Assembly: GCF_013122565.1 (NCBI RefSeq)
Contig: NZ_CP053258.1
Strand: one strand, 5' to 3'
Source: Escherichia coli
GTDB taxonomy: Bacteria > Pseudomonadota > Gammaproteobacteria > Enterobacterales > Enterobacteriaceae
Length of the DNA: 64,000 nucleotides
Notes under the pieces: generated by a model
Told to the model about the DNA's origin: nothing
Seen by the model: the letters and a program-made list of their open reading frames with translations, nothing else
Databases searched by the model: none
Part shown: positions 1,883 to 31,541 of the stretch, piece after piece
Layout of the letters: each line of letters starts with the position of its first letter
Numbering within the stretch: position 1 is the first letter of the stretch
Translations under genes and position numbers: made by a program

Positions 1883-4027
1883 TTAAAGTGCGCAGGAGAC
1901 GCAGCCTTCAATTTCAGTGCCTTCCAGCGCCATCTGACGCAGGCGGATGTAGTAGAGCGTTTTGATACCCTTGCGCCAGGCGTAAATCTGCGCTTTGTTG
2001 ATATCGCGAGTGGTGGCGGTATCGGGGAAAAACAGCGTCAGCGACAGCCCCTGATCGACATGGCGAGTCGCTTCCGCGTAGGTGTCGATGATCTTTTCTG
2101 CGCCGATTTCGTAAGCATCCTGATATAGCGCCAGATTCTCGTTAGTCATAAACGGGGCAGGGTAGTAAACGCGTCCTGTTTTGCCCTCTTTGCGTATCTC
2201 TACTTTCGCCACAATCGGATGAATACTCGACGTAGCATGGTTGATATAAGAGATAGAACCGGTTGGCGGCACCGCCTGAAGATTCTGGTTGTAAATGCCG
2301 TAGCGCATCACGTCGTCGCGCAGCTGCGCCCACATCTCACGGGTAGGTAACGTAATACCGCTACGGGTAAACAGTTCGCCAACTTTCGCCGTTTTCGGCT
2401 GCCAGTTCCCTTGCAGATATTGGCTAAAATATTCACCACTGGCATAGCGTGACTGTTTGTACCCGGCGAAGGTTTCACCGCGTTCGCGTGCCAGCAACAT
2501 CGAGGTACGCAGTGCGTGCCAGGTGATGGCATAGAAATAGAGATTGGTGAAATCCAGTGCTTCCGGCGAACCATAAGCGATGCCTTCTCGCGCCAGATAG
2601 CCGTGTAAATTCATCTGCCCCAGTCCGATGGCGTGCGAGGCGGCATTTCCGGCTTCGATGGACGGCACGCTGCGAATATGACTCATATCTGATACTGCCG
2701 TTAAACCGCGCACGGCAGTCTCTACCGTGCGGGCAAAGTCGGGGGAATCCATGGTGTGGGCAATATTCAACGAACCTAAATTGCAGGAAATATCATGGCC
2801 TGTACGGGCATAGTCGAGATTCTCGTCATACTCTGAGGCACAGTTGACCTGCAAAATCTCTGAGCAAAGATTGCTCATATTTATGCGCCCGGCGATAGGG
2901 TTAGCACGGTTTACCGTGTCTTCATACATGATGTACGGATAGCCGGACTCAAACTGGATTTCTGCCAGCCGCTGGAAGAAATCACGGGCGTTGAGGTATT
3001 TTTTGCGGATGCGTTCATCGGCAACCAGTTCGTCATAGTGTTCGCTAATGGCGATATCGGCAAACGGCTTGCCATAAACTCGCTCAACGTCATAGGGCGA
3101 AAACAGCGCCATCTGCGCATTCTCTTTTGCCAGATGGAAAGTGATATCCGGGATCACCACCCCCAGCGACAGTGTTTTAATGCGGATTTTTTCGTCGGCA
3201 TTTTCCCGCTTTGTATCGAGAAAACGCAGAATATCGGGATGATGAGCATGTAAATAGACTGCCCCAGCCCCCTGACGCGCGCCGAGCTGGTTGGCATAGG
3301 AAAATGCGTCTTCCAGCATTTTCATCACCGGAATCACGCCAGAAGATTGATTTTCAATACGTTTAATTGGCGCGCCCGCTTCTCGCAGATTCGACAGCAA
3401 AAATGCTACGCCGCCGCCGCGTTTCGACAGTTGCAGTGCGGAATTTACCGCCCGGCCAATCGACTCCATATTGTCTTCAATACGCAGCAGAAAACAGGAA
3501 ACCAGTTCGCCGCGCTGCTGCTTACCGCAGTTGAGGAATGTCGGCGTGGCTGGCTGAAAGCGTCCAGACAGCATCTCATCAGTTAGCTGGGTCGCCAGTG
3601 TTTCATCGCCTTGTGCCAGCGTCAGCGCCACCATCGTGACTCGATCGGCAAAATCTTCCAGATAACGCTTACCGTCGAATGTTTTCAGCGTATAGCTGGT
3701 GTAAAACTTCCATGCCCCGAGGAATGTCTGGAAACGAAAACCGCTGGCGTGCGCGTGGGCAAACAGCGTAATGACAAAATCGCGAGAGTAGCGGTTGAGG
3801 ACGTTTTCATCATAGTAACCTTCGTTGACCAGCCAGTTCAGGCGCTGCTGCTGGCTACTGAAGGTCACACTGTTCGGACGCACATGTGTCGTCATAAAGG
3901 CGTCTACTGCCTGGCGGTCTTTATCGAACTGAATGCGACCTGCGCTATCGTAAAGATTAAGCATCGCATTCAGAGCGTGATAATCCATCGTTTCCTGCGT
4001 CAGGCGTTCTGCGGTTGTCGTTGCCAA
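1883..4027 (-). CDS. nrdE: Class Ib ribonucleotide reductase alpha subunit
   Basis: 714-aa ORF; ends with C-terminal redox cysteine pair (…EGCVSCAL); operon context nrdHIEF. Confidence 0.95.
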
Positions 4028-21989: not shown

Positions 21990-22300
21990 AGCAATAACAG
22001 CGTTACGGTGCACCACGCCTGACTGAAGAACTGCGTGCTCAGGGTTACCACTTCAACGTAAAACCGTGGCAGGAGGTCCGGACTGAAAAAACTGCTCAGG
22101 ACATTATCGGCAGGGTACGCACTGGTAGTCTGTAAACTGAACCGACTGGGGCGCAGTATGTGGCATCTTGTCGTGCTGTTGGAGGAGCTGTGCGGACGTG
22201 GTATTAACTTTCGTGCTCTGGCCCAATCTATATTTGCCCAACAATGGGGGGACGGAAGCTGTAAAAGTAAAATAATCTGCGATCTCAGATTTATTGAGTG
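21990..22300 (+). pseudogene. pinH: Frameshifted remnant of a Pin/Hin/Gin-family serine DNA invertase (pinH-like)
   Basis: One frame translates to [52 protein letters not shown], which aligns well with Pin/Gin …PGLKRALKRLQKGDTLVVWKLDRLGRSMKHLISLVGELRERGINFRSLTDSI…; upstream similarity continues only after a frameshift, and no N-terminal catalytic Ser region or C-terminal HTH is present. Confidence 0.55.
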
Positions 22301-22639
22301 ATTTTTATGTGAGCAGAAGATATTCATCAGAAACGATTATGTAAATCATTTTATTTTGCCGACTGCCTGATTGTCGAAAGAAAAGAATACGCCCGTGTTT
22401 CCTGAATAGATTGACTTTTTTATCCAACCACACTTCAGCGCACTGCGTTTAAAAAATGCCTCATTCTTATGCGGAATATCATCATTTCATCATGATGTCT
22501 TTGATGAGCGGTGAACACAATACACTTGCGCTGTCTCTTCAGGATGAATCCCCTGGTCTGGTGCCTGTGGGCTGATGTTGCAGCAAAGCTAAGGTCGCTT
22601 AAACGCTACTCAGTATTCACTTTTCAGAGGATGAAATTT

Positions 22640-25600
22640 ATGAACAGGACCAGTCCCTATTATTGTCGTCGCTCAGTACTTTCCTTATTGATATCTGCCT
22701 TGATATATGCCCCGCCCGGGATGGCTGCCTTCACTCCTGATGTTATTGGTGTGGTAAACGATGAGACTGTAGATGGCAGCCAACGAGTAGATGAACGAGG
22801 TACAACAAATAACACTCATATTATCAACCATGGCCAGCAGAATGTTTATGGCGGGGTATCTAATGGAAGTCTTATTGAATCTGGTGGATATCAAGATGTA
22901 GGAAGGCATAACAATTATGTGGGGCAGTCTAATAATACAACCATTAACGGGGGCAGACAGACAATTCATGACGGGGGTATTTCCACAGGTACGATAATCG
23001 AGAGTGGCAATCAGGACGTTTATACAGGTGGTATCAGCAATAGAACGACAATTAAGGGTGGTAATTCACACATAAGTGGGGGGACTGCGAATGGCACAAT
23101 CATTGATGGTGGCAGCCAACGAGTAACAACTCAGGGGCATGTCGACAGTACAACGATAAATAAGTCTGGCTCTCAGGACATCACGCAAGGAAGTCTGGCA
23201 ACGAACACCATCATAAATGGTGGTCGACAGTATGTTGAACAGAGCACAGTAGAAACAACCACCATTAAAAATGGCGGTGAGCAAAGAGTATATGAGAGCC
23301 GTGCGCTGGACACGACGATTGAAGGCGGAACTCAGTCTCTGAATAGTAAGTCAACGGCAAAAAATACGCAGATCTATTCTGGTGGCACGCAAATTGTTGA
23401 TAACACCAGCACCTCGGATGTTATTGAAGTTTATTCCGGTGGCGTGCTTGATGTTAGTGGTGGTACGGCAACAAATGTTACCCAGCACGATGGTGCAATT
23501 TTAAAAACTAACACTAACGGTACGACGGTGAGCGGTACGAATAGTGAAGGTGCATTCTCCATCCACAATCACGTGGCAGACAATGTGTTGCTGGAAAACG
23601 GTGGTCATTTAGACATAAACGCATATGGTTCGGCAAACAAGACGATTATTAAAGATAAAGGAACAATGTCAGTTTTAACCAATGCTAAAGCTGATGCGAC
23701 CCGAATAGATAATGGCGGGGTTATGGATGTTGCAGGAAACGCGACAAATACCATAATTAATGGTGGCACACAGAATATTAATAATTATGGCATAGCCACA
23801 GGCACCAATATCAACAGCGGAACGCAAAATATCAAAAGCGGCGGGAAAGCTGACACAACAATTATATCCTCCGGGAGCCGGCAGGTTGTTGAGAAAGATG
23901 GTACGGCAATTGGCAGCAATATTAGCGCCGGAGGCTCGCTGATTGTCTATACCGGCGGTATTGCACATGGGGTTAACCAGGAGACGGGCAGTGCTTTAGT
24001 TGCCAACACGGGTGCAGGGACTGATATCGAAGGATACAACAAGCTCTCTCACTTCACTATTACCGGAGGGGAGGCTAATTATGTTGTGCTGGAAAATACC
24101 GGCGAACTGACGGTAGTGGCTAAAACCTCGGCGAAAAATACTACCATTGATGCTGGCGGTAAGCTGATTGTCCAGAAGGAGGCTAAAACAGATAGCACCA
24201 GACTTAATAATGGCGGCGTTCTGGAGGTTCAGGATGGTGGTGAGGCTAAGCATGTTGAGCAACAATCCGGCGGCGCATTAATTGCTTCCACGACTTCCGG
24301 AACACTTATCGAAGGAATCAACAGTTATGGTGATGCTTTCTACATCAGGAATTCAGAAGCTAAAAATGTAGTGCTGGAAAACGCTGGCTCATTAACAGTC
24401 GTCACTGGTTCCCGGGCAGTTGATACGATTATTAATGCCAACGGCAAAATGGATGTTTATGGAAAAGATGTTGGCACTGTACTCAATAGTGCTGGCACCC
24501 AAACAATATATGCCAGTGCCACTTCTGATAAAGCAAATATCAAAGGTGGCAAGCAAACGGTATATGGTTTAGCCACTGAAGCAAATATCGAAAGTGGTGA
24601 ACAAATTGTTGATGGTGGGTCAACAGACAAAACGCACATCAATGGCGGTACGCAAACCGTTCAGAATTATGGTAAGGCAATCAATACCGATATCGTCTCT
24701 GGCCTACAACAAATTATGGCAAACGGGACAGCGGAAGGTTCCATTATTAATGGCGGTTCACAGGTAGTTAATGAGGGCGGTCTGGCTGAAAATTCGGTGC
24801 TTAATGACGGCGGCATACTCGATGTGCGGGAGAAAGGCAGCGCAACGGGGATACAGCAGAGTAGCCAGGGCGCTTTGGTTGCAACCACCAGGGCGACGCG
24901 GGTCAAAGGAACACGCGCGGATGGCGTCGCGTTCAGCATCGAGCAGGGTGCGGCGAACAATATCCTGCTGGCAAATGGCGGCGTGTTAACCGTGGAGTCA
25001 GACACCTCTTCTGACAAAACACAGGTCAAGACGGGCGGACGGGAGATCGTCAAAACAAAAGCCACTGCGACAGGCACGACGCTCACCGGCGGTGAACAAA
25101 TTGTCGAGGGTGTGGCGAATGAGACAACAATTAACGACGGCGGAATACAAACAGTTTCAGCTAACGGAGAGGCAATAAAAACAAAGATCAATGAAGGCGG
25201 TACGCTGACAGTCAACGATAATGGCAAAGCGACAGATATCGTCCAGAACAGCGGTGCCGCTCTCCAGACGAGCACGGCTAACGGTATTGAAATCAGCGGT
25301 ACTCACCAGTACGGCACTTTTTCCATTGTCGGCAATTTAGCGACCAATATGTTGCTGGAAAATGGCGGTAATTTATTGGTATTAGCAGGTACCGAAGCTC
25401 GCGACTCCACGGTTGGCAAGGGTGGGGCAATGCAAAACCTGGGTCAGGACTCCGCTACAAAGGTTAACTCTGGCGGGCAATATACCCTTGGGCGGTCAAA
25501 AGATGAGTTTCAGCCTCTGGCCCGGGCAGAAGATCTCCAGGTCGCTGGCGGTACGGCAATCGTCTACGCAGGTACGCTGGCGGATGCATCGGTCAGTGGC

Positions 25601-27220
25601 GCGACAGGAAGCCTGTCGTTAATGACGCCACGGGATAATGTTACGCCAGTTAAACTCGAAGGGGCGGTCCGGATTACCGATAGCGCGACATTAACTCTGG
25701 GAAATGGCGTCGATACAACGCTTGCCGACCTGACGGCTGCCAGCCGGGGCAGTGTCTGGCTTAACAGCAATAATTCCTGTGCAGGTACCAGCAACTGCGA
25801 ATATAGAGTAAACAGTTTGCTACTCAACGACGGTGATGTTTATTTATCAGCACAAACAGCTGCGCCTGCCACAACTAACGGTATCTACAATACGCTGACA
25901 ACCAATGAACTTTCCGGTAGCGGTAATTTCTACCTGCATACCAACGTTGCTGGCTCCCGCGGTGATCAACTGGTCGTCAGCAACAACGCCACTGGTAATT
26001 TTAAAATCTTTGTTCAGGATACCGGCGTCAGCCCTCAGTCTGACGATGCGATGACGCTGGTGAAAACAGGGGGAGGGGATGCGTCGTTTACGCTGGGCAA
26101 TACCGGCGGTTTCGTTGATCTTGGGACCTATGAGTATGTCCTGAAAAGCGACGGCAACAGCAACTGGAACCTGACCAATGATGTCAAACCCAACCCGGAC
26201 CCCAACCCAAATCCAAAGCCAGACCCAAAACCCGATCCAACGCCAGACCCAAATCCAAAACCAGACCCGACTCCCGAGCCAACGCCGACACCCGTTCCGG
26301 AGAAACGCATTACGCCTTCTACGGCAGCCGTACTCAATATGGCAGCAACATTACCGTTGGTATTTGATGCTGAGCTAAACAGTATTCGCGAGCGGTTGAA
26401 CATAATGAAAGCGAGTCCACACAACAATAATGTCTGGGGGGCGACGTATAACACCCGTAATAATGTCACCACCGATGCGGGGGCTGGGTTTGAGCAGACG
26501 CTGACCGGAATGACAGTGGGGATCGACAGTCGTAATGATATTCCTGAAGGGATTGCCACGCTGGGCGCTTTTATGGGCTATTCACATTCACATATCGGTT
26601 TTGATCGCGGAGGACATGGCAGTGTGGGCAGTTATTCTCTGGGCGGCTATGCCAGTTGGGAACATGAAAGTGGTTTTTATCTGGACGGTGTCGTGAAGCT
26701 GAACCGTTTTGAAAGTAACGTAGCCGGTAAAATGAGCAGCGGTGGAGCCGCCAACGGCAGTTATCGCAGCAACGGGCTGGGCGGTCACATTGAAACCGGG
26801 ATGCGATTTACCGATGGTAACTGGAACCTGACGCCGTATGCATCGTTAACGGGGTTCACCGCTGATAACCCCGAATATCATTTATCCAATGGCATGGAAT
26901 CGAAATCAGTCGATACTCGCAGTATATATCGCGAACTGGGCGCAACGCTGAGTTACAACATGCGTCTGGGGAACGGTATGGAAATTGAGCCGTGGCTGAA
27001 GGCGGCTGTACGCAAAGAATTTGTCGATGATAACCGGGTGAAGGTGAATAATGACGGTAATTTCGTCAATGATTTGTCGGGCAGACGTGGAATATACCAG
27101 GCAGGTATTAAAGCCTCATTCAGCAGTACGTTAAGCGGGCATCTCGGGGTGGGGTATAGCCATGGTGCCGGTGTGGAATCACCGTGGAACGCGGTAGCTG
27201 GTGTGAACTGGTCGTTCTGA
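22640..27220 (+). CDS. ypjA: AIDA-I/YpjA-type autotransporter adhesin (type Va secretion)
   Basis: Track ORF 22511..27220; start placed at MNRTSPYYCRRSVLSLLISALIYAPPGMAA (extended signal peptide, SD agagga upstream) giving 1526 aa. Long passenger with ~19-residue degenerate repeats (…T.INGG.Q.V…GG…), Pro-rich linker KPNPDPNPNPKPDPKPDPTPDPNPKPDPTPEPTPTPVP, C-terminal beta-barrel ending …GVNWSF. Confidence 0.9.
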   Translation: MNRTSPYYCRRSVLSLLISALIYAPPGMAAFTPDVIGVVNDETVDGSQRVDERGTTNNTHIINHGQQNVYGGVSNGSLIESGGYQDVGRHNNYVGQSNNTTINGGRQTIHDGGISTGTIIESGNQDVYTGGISNRTTIKGGNSHISGGTANGTIIDGGSQRVTTQGHVDSTTINKSGSQDITQGSLATNTIINGGRQYVEQSTVETTTIKNGGEQRVYESRALDTTIEGGTQSLNSKSTAKNTQIYSGGTQIVDNTSTSDVIEVYSGGVLDVSGGTATNVTQHDGAILKTNTNGTTVSGTNSEGAFSIHNHVADNVLLENGGHLDINAYGSANKTIIKDKGTMSVLTNAKADATRIDNGGVMDVAGNATNTIINGGTQNINNYGIATGTNINSGTQNIKSGGKADTTIISSGSRQVVEKDGTAIGSNISAGGSLIVYTGGIAHGVNQETGSALVANTGAGTDIEGYNKLSHFTITGGEANYVVLENTGELTVVAKTSAKNTTIDAGGKLIVQKEAKTDSTRLNNGGVLEVQDGGEAKHVEQQSGGALIASTTSGTLIEGINSYGDAFYIRNSEAKNVVLENAGSLTVVTGSRAVDTIINANGKMDVYGKDVGTVLNSAGTQTIYASATSDKANIKGGKQTVYGLATEANIESGEQIVDGGSTDKTHINGGTQTVQNYGKAINTDIVSGLQQIMANGTAEGSIINGGSQVVNEGGLAENSVLNDGGILDVREKGSATGIQQSSQGALVATTRATRVKGTRADGVAFSIEQGAANNILLANGGVLTVESDTSSDKTQVKTGGREIVKTKATATGTTLTGGEQIVEGVANETTINDGGIQTVSANGEAIKTKINEGGTLTVNDNGKATDIVQNSGAALQTSTANGIEISGTHQYGTFSIVGNLATNMLLENGGNLLVLAGTEARDSTVGKGGAMQNLGQDSATKVNSGGQYTLGRSKDEFQPLARAEDLQVAGGTAIVYAGTLADASVSGATGSLSLMTPRDNVTPVKLEGAVRITDSATLTLGNGVDTTLADLTAASRGSVWLNSNNSCAGTSNCEYRVNSLLLNDGDVYLSAQTAAPATTNGIYNTLTTNELSGSGNFYLHTNVAGSRGDQLVVSNNATGNFKIFVQDTGVSPQSDDAMTLVKTGGGDASFTLGNTGGFVDLGTYEYVLKSDGNSNWNLTNDVKPNPDPNPNPKPDPKPDPTPDPNPKPDPTPEPTPTPVPEKRITPSTAAVLNMAATLPLVFDAELNSIRERLNIMKASPHNNNVWGATYNTRNNVTTDAGAGFEQTLTGMTVGIDSRNDIPEGIATLGAFMGYSHSHIGFDRGGHGSVGSYSLGGYASWEHESGFYLDGVVKLNRFESNVAGKMSSGGAANGSYRSNGLGGHIETGMRFTDGNWNLTPYASLTGFTADNPEYHLSNGMESKSVDTRSIYRELGATLSYNMRLGNGMEIEPWLKAAVRKEFVDDNRVKVNNDGNFVNDLSGRRGIYQAGIKASFSSTLSGHLGVGYSHGAGVESPWNAVAGVNWSF

Positions 27221-27232
27221 CCATCAACGAAA

Positions 27233-27255
27233 AAGCCCACATCTGTGGGCTTTCA
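27233..27255 (+). terminator. Putative intrinsic terminator after ypjA
   Basis: aaaaagcccacatctgtgggctttc: GC stem gcccac/gtgggc followed by a short T tract. Confidence 0.45.
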
Positions 27256-27380
27256 TGTTACCAGGAGCCGCGGCTCCTTTGCGTATCCTTTTTTGTCTCC
27301 TCACCGTCTGGTCGGTGTCCTGCTGAGACTGCTAACTTCCTGTTTTTGTTGGTGTTGTCCTTACACCGTCCAATCATGAT

Positions 27381-27743
27381 TGGTGGAGCTGGCGGGAGTT
27401 GAACCCGCGTCCGAAATTCCTACATCCTCGGTACTACATGCTTAGTCAGTCTTTACATTCGCTTGCCAGCTGCGGACGGACACGCCACTAACAAACTAGC
27501 CTGATTAAGTTTTAACGCTTCAACCCCAGGCAGGGCTTCCACGCGATCTCTTTTGGGTTTGACCTCTCTTGATCCCCGTCCTAAGAGCGGAGGCTAGGGA
27601 GAGAGGGCTCTAAGCAGGTTATTAAGCTGCTAAAGCGTAGTTTTCGTCGTTTGCGACTATTTTTTGCGGCTTTTTACGAGGCCAACCGCCCCTCGGCATG
27701 CACCTTGGGTTTCGCAAATCCCGTCGAATCCAGAATCAGCCCC
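27381..27743 (-). ncRNA. ssrA: tmRNA (SsrA), 363 nt
   Basis: Reverse complement reads GGGGCTGATTCTGGATTCGACGGGATTTGCGAAACCCAAGGTGCATGCCGAGG … and contains the tag reading frame GCAAACGACGAAAACTACGCTTTAGCAGCTTAA (ANDENYALAA*) and the tRNA-like 3' end …GGGTTCAACTCCCGCCAGCTCCACCA. Confidence 0.96.
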
Positions 27744-27957: not shown

Positions 27958-28440
27958 TTAACGGTGGGCGTTTTTCATGATACGCGCTTTATCCACCTGC
28001 CATTCGCGCTCTTTGATATCTGAACGTTTATCATGCTGTTTCTTACCTTTGGCGACGCCGATTTTCACTTTGCACCAGGCATTTTTCCAGTACAGGGAAA
28101 GCGCCACTACGGTATAGCCTTCTCGATTGACGCGACCGTACAATGAGTCCAGTTCGCGCTGGTTGAGAAGTAACTTGCGGGTACGGGTAGGATCGCACAC
28201 CACATGCGTGGAGGCCACGGCCATTGGCGTGATGTTAGCGCCAAACAGAAATGCCTCTCCGTCACGCAGAAGGACGTAGCTGTCGCTGATATTGGCTTTT
28301 CCTGCGCGCAGGGATTTAACCTCCCAGCCTTGCAGGGCAAGTCCCGCTTCGAACTCTTCTTCGATAAAGTATTCGTGACGGGCGCGCTTGTTAAGCGCGA
28401 TGGTCGCTGAACCAGGTTTATGTGCTTTTTTCTTCGTCAT
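27958..28440 (-). CDS. smpB: SsrA-binding protein SmpB
   Basis: 160-aa [31 protein letters not shown]…; adjacent to ssrA. Confidence 0.95.
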
Positions 28441-28571: not shown

Positions 28572-29048
28572 ATGATATTATTTGTTGGATTTTTGTTGAT
28601 GGAAATTGTTATGCCTCAGATTAGCCGGACCGCACTGGTACCCTACAGCGCGGAGCAAATGTATCAGTTAGTGAATGACGTTCAGTCTTATCCTCAGTTT
28701 TTGCCGGGTTGTACCGGAAGTCGGATTCTGGAGTCCACTCCTGGGCAGATGACTGCGGCGGTAGATGTCTCTAAGGCTGGGATCAGCAAAACGTTTACTA
28801 CCCGCAACCAGTTGACCAGTAACCAAAGTATTCTTATGAATCTGGTGGATGGGCCGTTCAAGAAATTGATTGGTGGATGGAAGTTTACGCCGCTGAGCCA
28901 GGAGGCGTGTCGTATCGAGTTTCATCTCGACTTTGAGTTTACCAATAAGTTGATTGAACTCGCCTTTGGTCGCGTGTTTAAAGAGCTGGCGGCTAATATG
29001 GTCCAGGCTTTTACGGTTCGTGCGAAAGAGGTTTATAGTGCCAGGTAA
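28572..29048 (+). CDS. ratA: Ribosome-association toxin RatA (YfjG), SRPBCC family
   Basis: 158-aa ORF, synteny smpB / ratA / ratB / bamE. Confidence 0.82.
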
Positions 29049-29328
29049 AATTGCCGTTGAGGTGGCTTATGCGCTACCTGAGAAGCAGTACATGCAGCGT
29101 GTGACGCTGCAGGAGGGTGCGACGGTTGAAGAAGCTATTCGCGCCAGTGGCTTGCTGGAATTGCGTACCGATATCGATTTAACTAAAAACAAAGTCGGCA
29201 TTTACAGCCGTCCGGCAAAACTAAGCGATAGTGTGCATGATGGCGATCGGGTGGAGATTTATCGCCCTCTCATTGCCGATCCGAAAGAGCTTCGCAGGCA
29301 ACGAGCAGAAAAATCAGCGAATAAATAA
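29038..29328 (+). CDS. ratB: RnfH-family protein RatB (YfjF)
   Basis: Frame read from GTG at 29038 gives [39 protein letters not shown]… (96 aa); overlaps ratA 3' end by 11 nt. Confidence 0.8.
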
Positions 29329-29389
29329 CGGACAGAAAAAAGGTGCTCATTGAGCACCTTTTTTAACGTCTTTGAGAGCAACTTTATTA

Positions 29390-29731
29390 TTAGTTACCAC
29401 TCAGCGCAGGTTTGTTATCAATATTGGTCAACACACCGCTACTGTTAAAGGTCAGCGTCAGCGTTTGCTGCGTTACACCTTCATGACCTGGTTGCTGGCG
29501 GAAGACATAGAACCAGGTATTCGTACCAAATGGATCGGACATCAGCGGTGTACCCAATGCGTACGCAACTTGTTGTTGCGTCATGCCAACACGTATTTTG
29601 GATACGTCGTTAGCGGTCAGATAGTTCCCCTGGTTGATGTCAGGACGGTAAACCACTCGCTCCAGAGTGGAACAGCCTGCGGTCAACATCAATAGTACTG
29701 CTGCTGCAGCAGTCAGCGTTTTACAGCGCAT
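29390..29731 (-). CDS. bamE: Outer-membrane protein assembly factor BamE (SmpA) lipoprotein
   Basis: 113-aa ORF with lipobox LTAGC and BamE-type sequence. Confidence 0.9.
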
Positions 29732-29879: not shown

Positions 29880-31541
29880 TTACGCCGCAAGCAGTTCTTT
29901 CGCATTCGCCAGTGTGTTACGTGTGACTTCGCTGCCACCAAGCAGGCGCGCCAGCTCTTGTAACCGCGCTTTTTTATCCAGGGATTGCATATGCGTTTCT
30001 GTCATCGCACCATCGGTTTCTTTGCTGACAAAATAGTGTTGATGACCACATCCCGCGACTTGTGGCAGGTGGGTAACACACATCACCTGAGTTGATTCGC
30101 CGAGTTGACGCAGCAGTTTGCCGACAACTGCCGCTGTTGGACCGCTAATCCCTACATCCACTTCATCAAAAATCAGTGCCGGGGTTTCCATTTTACGCGC
30201 CGTGATGACCTGAATTGCCAGTGCGATGCGTGACAATTCACCACCGGATGCGACTTTGGCAATAGGCTGCATTGGCTGACCTGGGTTGGTGGTTACCCGA
30301 AACTCAATACGATCGGCACCGTCAGCGCCCAGGTGATGCTCGTCAAATTTAACATCGATCGTAAACTGCCCATGCGGCATTGAGAGTGCATGCATACTGT
30401 CGGTGATCAGCAGTGCAAGTTCTTCTGCATACTGCTGGCGTTGCTGGTGTAATGCGCGCGCGGTTTCCAGTGCCTGCTGATGATGTTTCGTTACCGCCAG
30501 CGCGAGCGTTTCTTGTGAGTCGGCCTGATCGTCCAGTTGCTGCTGTTCTTCCAGTAGCGACTGGTAATACTGTGGCAATGCCTCAGGGCTGACGTGATGT
30601 TTACGTGCCAGCGAAATCTGTTTTGAGATGCGCTGTTCAAGTTCAAACAGTCGGTTGGGATCGAGATCCAGACGATCGCAGTAGTGGCGCAGTTCATCGC
30701 TGGCTTCAGCAATCTGGATGGTAGCTTCTTCCAGCATATCAAGTACGCCGGACAGTTTGCTGTCCATGCCAATCAATTCGCTCACCAGTTGTTTAGCCGT
30801 GTAAAGCTGACTTTGCAGGTTTGCGTCTTCACCGTCGGCCATTAATGCCAATGCATTCTGGCTGGTGGTCAGCAATTGACCGCTGTTCGCCAGACGTTTG
30901 TACTCTTCGTCGATTTGCTCAAACTCTCCGGGCTGCGGATTAAATTCGTTAAGTTCTTTTAATTGGTATTGCAGCAGTTCTGCACGGGCGGCGCGTTCCT
31001 GACTTAACTGTTGATGATGCGCGAGGTCGCGGCAGCTTTGATGCCACAATTGATAACGTGCGGTCATTTCCTGAAGCAGAGAGGTTTCATTGGCATAGCC
31101 ATCAAGCAGGAATTTTTGGTGCTCGGGTTTGGTGAGTAATTGATGAGCGTGCTGACCATGGATCTGAATCAGCAACTGACCCAGTTCGCGCAGTTGTGAC
31201 AGAGGAACAGCTGTACCGTTGATGAAACCACGGGAGCGACCATCACTGCTGATCACGCGACGAAGCAAACATTCATGCCCGTCTTCAAGCTGGTTTTCTT
31301 CCAGCCAGCGCAGGGCCGCTGGCGTATCTTTCAGAGAAAAACGGGCGCACAGGTCAGCGCGAGCAGCGCCGGTACGCACCATGTCGGCTTCAGCGCGACC
31401 ACCGAGACACAGACCGAGGGCATCTATTGCAATAGATTTACCCGCGCCGGTCTCGCCAGTTATTACGGTCATGCCGCTATGAAAATCAATCTCAAGCTCA
31501 CGAACGATAGCAAAGTTGCTGATGGTCAGTTGTGCCAACAT
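29880..31541 (-). CDS. recN: DNA repair protein RecN (SMC-like ATPase)
   Basis: 553-aa ORF; Walker A GETGAGKS near N-terminus; coiled-coil middle; LexA boxes upstream. Confidence 0.95.

Follow-up and report, generated by a model that had tools for sequence, protein, structure and literature searches.

The closest described systems to the locus analysed here are the ratAB genes of Escherichia coli K-12 (b2619-b2618) and the pasTI genes of the UPEC strain CFT073. Zhang & Inouye (2011), as relayed by later papers (PMC11988751, PMC3464220), first described these genes as a toxin-antitoxin (TA) module. Fino et al. (2020) later described PasT as a bacterial homologue of Coq10 (PMC7424257), and Fasnacht et al. 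(2026) reported that RatA binds ubiquinone and proposed the new name UbiM (bioRxiv 10.64898/2026.05.04.722385). The same studies report experiments in which RatA supports respiration, human COQ10 complements mutants, and RatA and Coq10 are functionally equivalent according to this literature (bioRxiv 10.64898/2026.05.04.722385; PMC7424257). RatA has thus been shown to be a non-toxic, Coq10-like chaperone or shuttle for ubiquinone (PMC7424257, bioRxiv 10.64898/2026.05.04.722385, PMC11988751). It shares the START/SRPBCC fold family with mitochondrial Coq10 and with Caulobacter CC1736 (PDB 1T17). However, genes of the Coq10 type are mostly solitary, and it is only the beta- and gammaproteobacterial ones that have an overlapping rnfH-family gene immediately downstream. 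The relatives of the product of that second gene, RatB, include RnfH of the Azotobacter vinelandii Rnf1 complex (8AHX chain H) and the Haemophilus influenzae HI0395-type protein 2HJ1, which share with it the Ub-RnfH beta-grasp family.

The window, by which we mean the whole stretch of 64,000 nucleotides that was analysed, carries the E. coli ratA-ratB locus (yfjG-yfjF, pasTI), which is a known two-gene housekeeping operon. Its portion at about 28.5-29.4 kb is E. coli chromosome, for which the best of 5,426 complete genomes is 99.5% identical at the DNA level, and ratA-ratB was matched in 5,425 of these 5,426 genomes at one chromosomal place. The locus is the same one as K-12 ratAB and CFT073 pasTI, with identical genes, order, overlap and neighbours (smpB, ssrA, bamE and recN). 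There are two differences from the K-12/CFT073 form, namely a rare Leu19Met allele of RatB (17 of the 5,426 genomes) and a synonymous change from TAC to TAT just 5' of the ratB GTG. We consider it very probable that this region is a core, syntenic, sigma-70-driven bicistronic housekeeping operon in which RatA is made from the ATG at 28611 and RatB from the overlapping GTG at 29038.

The ratA gene (yfjG/pasT; proposed ubiM) occupies positions 28611-29048 of the plus strand and encodes 145 amino acids. The ratB gene (yfjF/pasI) follows on the same strand at 29038-29328, where it encodes 96 amino acids from a GTG start and has the same coordinates in the PGAP annotation. On the other side of ratA, and on the minus strand, are the divergent smpB gene (27958-28440; Pfam PF01668) and the tmRNA gene ssrA (27381-27743; Rfam RF00023, 295.8 bits), which confirms that the pair adjoins smpB and ssrA as originally predicted. 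The bamE gene (smpA; 29390-29731, minus strand; Pfam PF04355 and the PGAP annotation) is convergent with ratB, and beyond it lies recN (29880-31541, minus strand), as given by the list of open reading frames and the annotation. An open reading frame of 1,569 amino acids for an AIDA/pertactin-type autotransporter (YpjA/EhaD) is located at 22511-27220 on the plus strand, and its end lies some 160 bp short of the ssrA 3' end. The surrounding stretch of 19000-27380 appears to be a divergent allele in a variable region abutting ssrA, because no complete E. coli genome matches it at more than 96.8% identity.

A scan of one genome per species yielded 80 loci, which span the Enterobacterales, Pasteurellales, Alteromonadales, Vibrionales, Aeromonadales and a few Betaproteobacteria. 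The ratA gene is located directly upstream of ratB in 73 of these loci, and in 69 of the 73 it is adjoined by a divergent smpB gene. The order smpB-ratA-ratB-bamE is kept across the Enterobacterales and beyond. There are seven loci with a solitary ratB gene, all from the Pasteurellaceae (L055, L057, L058, L061, L066, L067 and L076) and belonging to Haemophilus, Rodentibacter, Aggregatibacter segnis and Cricetibacter. The neighbours are unrelated open reading frames, with no ratA or smpB nearby, and the match to ratB lies at about position 3001 in six of the loci and at 2054 in L055. Two further Pasteurellaceae loci (L053 and L077) have kept ratA-ratB but not smpB. The solitary genes hint at a role for RatB that is independent of RatA.

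The conserved neighbourhood of smpB, START, RnfH and smpA genes, with its divergent smpB in nearly every ratA-ratB locus, is the basis for a proposal that RatA and RatB act with SmpB and tmRNA on ribosomes or in protein tagging. Iyer et al. (2006) remarked on this neighbourhood and found RnfH to be closest to the RNA-binding TGS domains. In addition, there is one short metagenomic contig (L083) on which a 241-amino-acid START-RnfH fusion (P0253; 1595-2320) is followed directly on the same strand by smpB (2317-2778), the two overlapping by 4 nt. A Rosetta-stone fusion is one possible reading, although this is a single instance and an assembly error is also possible. The proposal rests on gene neighbourhood, and no experiment links SmpB or tmRNA to RatA or RatB. 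Moreover, the short form of RatA is found in the free-protein fraction of ribosome gradients (PMC11988751), the ubiquinone binding and the complementation by human COQ10 cited above point to another function, and the seven solitary ratB genes of the Pasteurellaceae are located away from smpB. A joint action with the tmRNA system is accordingly regarded here as very unlikely.

The assignment of RatA to the SRPBCC/START family, which was part of the original prediction, is well supported. The START-type Polyketide_cyc profile PF03364 matches with E = 1.3e-38 over positions 1-126 of 126, the NCBIfam model NF007999 matches over positions 1-144 of 144, and the solved structure 1t17 aligns with E = 1.7e-19. 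The domain thus spans RatA, as is found in the Coq10-like family. What did not survive is the start of ratA at 28572, which gives a protein of 158 amino acids and corresponds to the old K-12 annotation, a mis-annotated long form. PGAP places the start at the equivalent of 28611, giving 145 amino acids, and the extent of homology and published work (PMC11988751) agree with this position. There are 71 of the 73 loci in which ratA is not cut by the end of the locus, and in all of them homology begins at an ATG-CCN-CAG equivalent to Met14 of the long form. Of 48 Enterobacterales loci, only 15 could encode a long form that begins with an in-frame ATG and is free of stop codons. Thus, the 13-codon N-terminal extension at 28572-28610 lies outside the physiological RatA protein. 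Fasnacht et al. (2025) found the Met14-initiated protein to be the sole detectable form of RatA, and also reported a sigma-70 -10 box within the annotated open reading frame, with a transcription start downstream of Met1 (PMC11988751).

The conservation of the 5' region suggests which bases form this promoter element. An extended -10 element, TGaTATTAT (TGATATTAT), can be assigned to positions 28573-28581 of the plus strand by the conservation of the pattern TGnTAnnAT, and the TG of TGATATTAT comes from the annotated Met1 ATG (28572-28574). The TGnTAnnAT motif recurs at 47 of the 48 Enterobacterales loci; at 43 of them it is located 38-39 nt 5' of the true ATG, whatever the reading frame. Because the motif is kept at a near-fixed distance regardless of frame, the 'Met1' ATG appears to be conserved as promoter DNA. 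A simple promoter scan did not pick up the ratA promoter, whose -35 element is poor. A separate promoter-like match at 29010-29039 (TTTACG, an 18-nt spacer and TATAGT) ends at the ratB GTG. Its TATAGT hexamer includes the T at 29036 of the window, where two other aligned E. coli genomes have C (TACAGT), and this match is probably due to chance.

The corrected start bears directly on the proposal that ratAB is a type II TA module, in which RatA would block 70S association and RatB, co-translated by means of the overlap, would neutralize it. A small operon of two overlapping genes has a superficial resemblance to such a module, and the label 'type II toxin-antitoxin system RatA family toxin' is still current in NCBIfam and PGAP. 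In addition to the 2011 description, Norton & Mulvey reported that over-expression of PasI relieved the toxicity of over-expressed long-form PasT in liquid cultures of CFT073 (PMC3464220). However, this rescue concerns an artefactual protein. Toxicity is confined to the mis-annotated 158-amino-acid form when it is over-expressed, cells make only the Met14 form (PMC11988751), and the reading frame for the long form is closed in most Enterobacterales (open in the 15 of 48 loci given above). Fino et al. (2020) concluded that pasTI is not a TA module and observed no growth inhibition (PMC7424257). Furthermore, a ratB deletion is viable, and neither a complex between RatA and RatB nor neutralization on plates was seen (bioRxiv 10.64898/2026.05.04.722385; PMC11988751).

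Genomic evidence points the same way. The ratAB genes are core to E. coli and syntenic across orders, unlike TA loci, for which an accessory, patchy and often mobile distribution is typical although not strictly defining. The sole domain of RatB found with Pfam and NCBIfam is Ub-RnfH (residues 5-87 of 96), and these databases reveal no DNA-binding domain and no known antitoxin domain in the protein. It also counts against a TA module that the gene for the putative toxin stands first in the operon. Thus, the TA proposal has already been largely refuted, and we regard it as highly improbable. The description of RatA in the original prediction as a ribosome-association toxin, and of the pair as TA-like, is outdated, since only the over-expressed, mis-annotated long form is toxic (PMC11988751). 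The accompanying caution that RatB had not been shown to be an antitoxin was justified.

Translationally coupled gene pairs in bacterial operons classically overlap by 4 nt (ATGA) or by 1 nt, for example at the junctions of the trp operon. The ratA-ratB junction shares with these pairs a same-strand overlap of stop and start and a downstream Shine-Dalgarno (SD) sequence that is located inside the upstream coding sequence. However, it differs in that the overlap is 11 nt in length (8 nt in most other Enterobacterales), the start codon is GTG, and coupling is a matter of inference. The ratA stop codon, TAA, is located at 29046-29048, which is 11 nt inside ratB, as is evident from the sequence and from the list of open reading frames. 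The in-frame GTG at 29038-29040 opens a frame of 96 codons that ends at 29328. Thus, the segment 29038-29048 of the plus strand is read in two frames, as GTG-CCA-GGT-AA in ratB and as AGT-GCC-AGG-TAA at the end of ratA. RefSeq/PGAP annotations of E. coli genomes have an identical ratB (yfjF) start and the same overlap, and the 11-nt overlap therefore stands as originally proposed.

The overlap is a general property of the adjacent pairs. In all 73 loci, which include those of the Enterobacteriaceae, a ratB start codon is available that overlaps the ratA stop by 1-20 nt, so the conservation that the original prediction had offered as a check is indeed found. Four classes predominate, with a GTG and an 8-nt overlap in 31 loci, a GTG and 11 nt in 20, an ATG and 8 nt in seven, and an ATG and 4 nt in five; the remaining overlaps are 1, 4, 8, 11, 17 or 20 nt in length. 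An ATG with an 8-nt overlap is also present at locus L052. The overlap is 11 nt in the Enterobacteriaceae and 8 nt in the other Enterobacterales families, and the consensus for the Enterobacterales junction is cgN gcN AAA GAG GTN TAY NGT GNN (NNN) TRA. Since none of the 73 loci lacks such a start, the overlap exceeds what chance would produce.

There are two loci in which extra codons separate the overlapping start and its SD from the RnfH domain. In Acerihabitans arboris (L049, 2833-3007) there are some 50 such codons, many of them for Pro, Gly, Ala and Thr. In a metagenome-assembled genome of the Alteromonadaceae (L072, 2902-3001) there are some 30. The extra codons may be N-terminal extensions of the protein, or else spacers that precede a new internal start.

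Five lines of evidence support the GTG at 29038 as the start of ratB, in agreement with the original prediction: its SD, the extent of the domain, the rarity of the ATG further downstream, the 73 loci and synonymous constraint. The predicted SD is AAGAGG at 29026-29031 of the plus strand, which is located 6 nt upstream of the GTG and is formed by the ratA codons Lys-Glu-Val (AAA GAG GTT). This has the strongest pairing with the anti-SD sequence among the in-frame candidates (-6.5 kcal/mol), whereas the GTG at 29020 and the TTG codons have -2.5 kcal/mol or weaker. When all candidate starts are compared, the best anti-SD duplex is located at the overlapping start in most loci.

The codons that contain the SD are also unusually biased. 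At the Glu codon of the SD, GAG outnumbers GAA by 46 to 1, as against 131 to 95 at five further columns of ratA in which Glu is conserved (Fisher p = 6e-9), and at the Lys codon AAA outnumbers AAG by 38 to 1, as against 98 to 44 (p = 1e-4), although both p-values overstate the independence of loci that are phylogenetically related. This bias indicates that the synonymous sites of the ratA Lys-Glu codons are held fixed to preserve the ribosome-binding site of ratB. The domain boundaries agree with the same start. The Pfam Ub-RnfH profile aligns over positions 1-83 of 83 to residues 5-87 of the 96-amino-acid RatB, and its alignments with 2hj1 and with the RnfH chain of 8ahx likewise begin at the VEVxYA strand. 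Among the 150 best of 3,567 cluster representatives, this strand is found only a few residues after the annotated N-terminus.

Two other codons in the ratB frame of the window were weighed as starts, the ATG at 29092-29094 (plus strand), which would leave no overlap, and the GTG at 29020, which would give a 29-nt overlap. That RatB is initiated at either one is exceedingly unlikely. The ATG is codon 19 of ratB and is the Leu19Met allele mentioned above. A probe whose match requires the A of this ATG finds it in 17 of 5,426 E. coli genomes, whereas codon 19 is CTG (Leu) in other E. coli and in E. albertii, Salmonella, Citrobacter and Kosakonia. The hosts of the allele among the ten matches listed are pig, pigeon and bovine. 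Initiation at this codon would remove the first strand, VEVxYA, which is invariant in 61 diverse aligned relatives and opens the domain in Pfam and in two solved homologues. Thus, the downstream, non-overlapping ATG start that the original prediction had named as its refutation is rejected, since it is a rare allele that would truncate the domain.

The GTG at 29020 arises incidentally from a CGT Arg codon, is present in about 12 of some 50 Enterobacterales loci and, by the pairing energies given above, has no SD. This codon and the TTG at 28954 were rejected as starts for lack of an SD and of conservation. No experimentally determined N-terminus of RatB was found. The supplements of TRAINSPOTTER and INRI-seq (start-site and N-terminomics studies) contain nothing on ratB; for ratA, the INRI-seq supplement does list internal initiation at an in-frame ATG, at +27. 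Tagged RatB was undetectable in the hands of Fasnacht et al. (bioRxiv 10.64898/2026.05.04.722385).

The arrangement of these features suggests how the operon might be expressed. A single sigma-70 promoter, whose extended -10 element shares bases with the mis-annotated 'Met1' codon of ratA, would drive a transcript that encodes the 145-amino-acid RatA from the ATG at 28611 and the 96-amino-acid RatB from the GTG at 29038. Ribosomes that finish ratA would stop 6-8 nt past the ratB start, and RatB would be made together with RatA, whether ribosomes reinitiate or newly bind at a site that lacks structure. The output of RatB is probably held below that of RatA by its weak GTG start. In this model ratB has no promoter of its own and the operon ends at a strong bidirectional terminator. 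The predicted terminator is located at 29336-29364, between the convergent ratB and bamE genes, and consists of an A-tract, a 13-bp stem and a T-tract. Although a simple terminator scan did not pick up this hairpin, RNA folding did, with a free energy of -20.7 kcal/mol (z = -6.3) and with none of 200 shuffled sequences folding as well.

Translation of ratB may be coupled to that of ratA, as the junction has a same-strand overlap and a ratB SD inside ratA, both conserved among relatives, which are the features expected of a coupled pair. An alternative that we regard as possible but somewhat unlikely is that the overlap is incidental packing and that ratB is translated independently from its own strong SD, with no coupling and no stoichiometric role for the overlap. 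The RNA at the junction is not unusually structured (z = +0.34), and so translation of ratB need not depend on translation of ratA and fresh initiation is probably possible. The ribosome-binding site of ratB is good and under selection, and the overlap drifts between clades among lengths of 1, 4, 8, 11, 17 and 20 nt. These observations favour incidental packing. However, not one of the 73 loci, across Enterobacterales, Alteromonadales and Betaproteobacteria, has swapped the overlap for a clean intergenic spacer. Its presence in all of them argues that the proximity of stop and start is useful. In addition, GTG has been retained across the Enterobacterales even though the poorly conserved tail of RatA would readily allow an ATG, which suggests selection for lower output of RatB.

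An experimental observation that might seem to bear on coupling is that ratB is reduced by a log2 fold change of -6.75 (about 100-fold) in a ratA deletion (bioRxiv 10.64898/2026.05.04.722385). This drop is in keeping with an operon. Loss of the shared promoter may equally explain it, and it is no proof of coupling because a deletion that starts from the annotated Met1 would take the -10 box with it.

Two specific mechanisms were also considered for the junction. The classical coupling mechanism, in which an RNA hairpin occludes the downstream start, is unsupported for ratB given the z-score of +0.34. A programmed +1 frameshift that would produce a RatA-RatB fusion from the ribosome-binding site, AGG and TAA, in a loosely prfB-like arrangement, was rejected because there is no slippery codon and because the junction sequence varies between clades. 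Fused RatA-RatB proteins in databases look like the results of single-base indels or one-off contigs.

The membership of RatB in the RnfH family, with its ubiquitin-like beta-grasp fold, was correctly predicted. PF03658 matches with 120.4 bits against a cut-off of 23.7 (E = 4.3e-35; positions 1-83 of 83), and the NCBIfam equivalog NF002490 matches with 153.8 bits against a cut-off of 75. Among solved structures, 2hj1 aligns with E = 1e-27 and chain H of 8ahx (RnfH) with E = 8e-14. Unlike the RnfH of Rnf complexes, RatB has a basic C-terminal tail and its gene has no adjacent rnf or rsx genes, either in the window or at any of the 80 loci. The C-terminal Gly-Gly of ThiS, MoaD and ubiquitin is absent from RatB, which is not what is expected of a conjugatable protein or a sulfur carrier, and Iyer et al. 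(2006) linked no ubiquitin-like transfer system to RnfH. In the A. vinelandii Rnf1 complex, RnfH is a cytoplasmic subunit without cofactors that contacts RnfB and a long helix of RnfC, and a RatB-like protein of Legionella binds an RnfB homologue in a two-hybrid assay. No function has been established for RatB, because ratA on its own restores all the phenotypes of a double deletion (bioRxiv 10.64898/2026.05.04.722385; PMC7424257).

We infer from these relationships that RatB, a ubiquitin-fold protein without cofactors, would be a protein-protein adaptor in membrane electron transport, acting with an Rsx/Rnf-type complex or with the ubiquinone machinery, rather than an antitoxin. A more specific and quite speculative possibility, which we consider improbable as formulated, is that RatB is an orphan RnfH-type adaptor that docks with a partner of the RnfB/RnfC kind (in E. 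coli, RsxB/RsxC) or with a ubiquinone-synthesis metabolon. The overlap would then serve to keep the quinone shuttle and the electron-transport adaptor in constant proportion as they are made. The basis for this reading is the homology to subunit H of Rnf1, the interaction with RnfB in Legionella and the persistence of solitary ratB genes in the Pasteurellaceae.

The essentials of the biology described here have already been published: the overlap, the operon, constructs that use the GTG start, the evidence that refutes the TA model and the revised ratA start. The overlap and the antitoxin idea that it prompted are likewise treated in the preprint (bioRxiv 10.64898/2026.05.04.722385). By comparing loci, the present analysis strengthens the case for the GTG as the ratB start and for selection on the ribosome-binding site that ratB has inside ratA, and it adds the finding that the 'Met1' ATG seems to be a conserved promoter element. 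For annotation, ratA of the window should start at 28611 and not at 28572, and the name 'type II toxin-antitoxin system toxin RatA' (NF007999, PGAP), which is carried by thousands of genomes, is misleading. RatB is a widely conserved protein of the RnfH family, and its function is called 'elusive' (bioRxiv 10.64898/2026.05.04.722385). What is new is the suggestion that RatB may be an RnfH-type adaptor for Rsx/Rnf-like or ubiquinone machinery, and if the orphan-adaptor reading is true, it would give RatB a first function.
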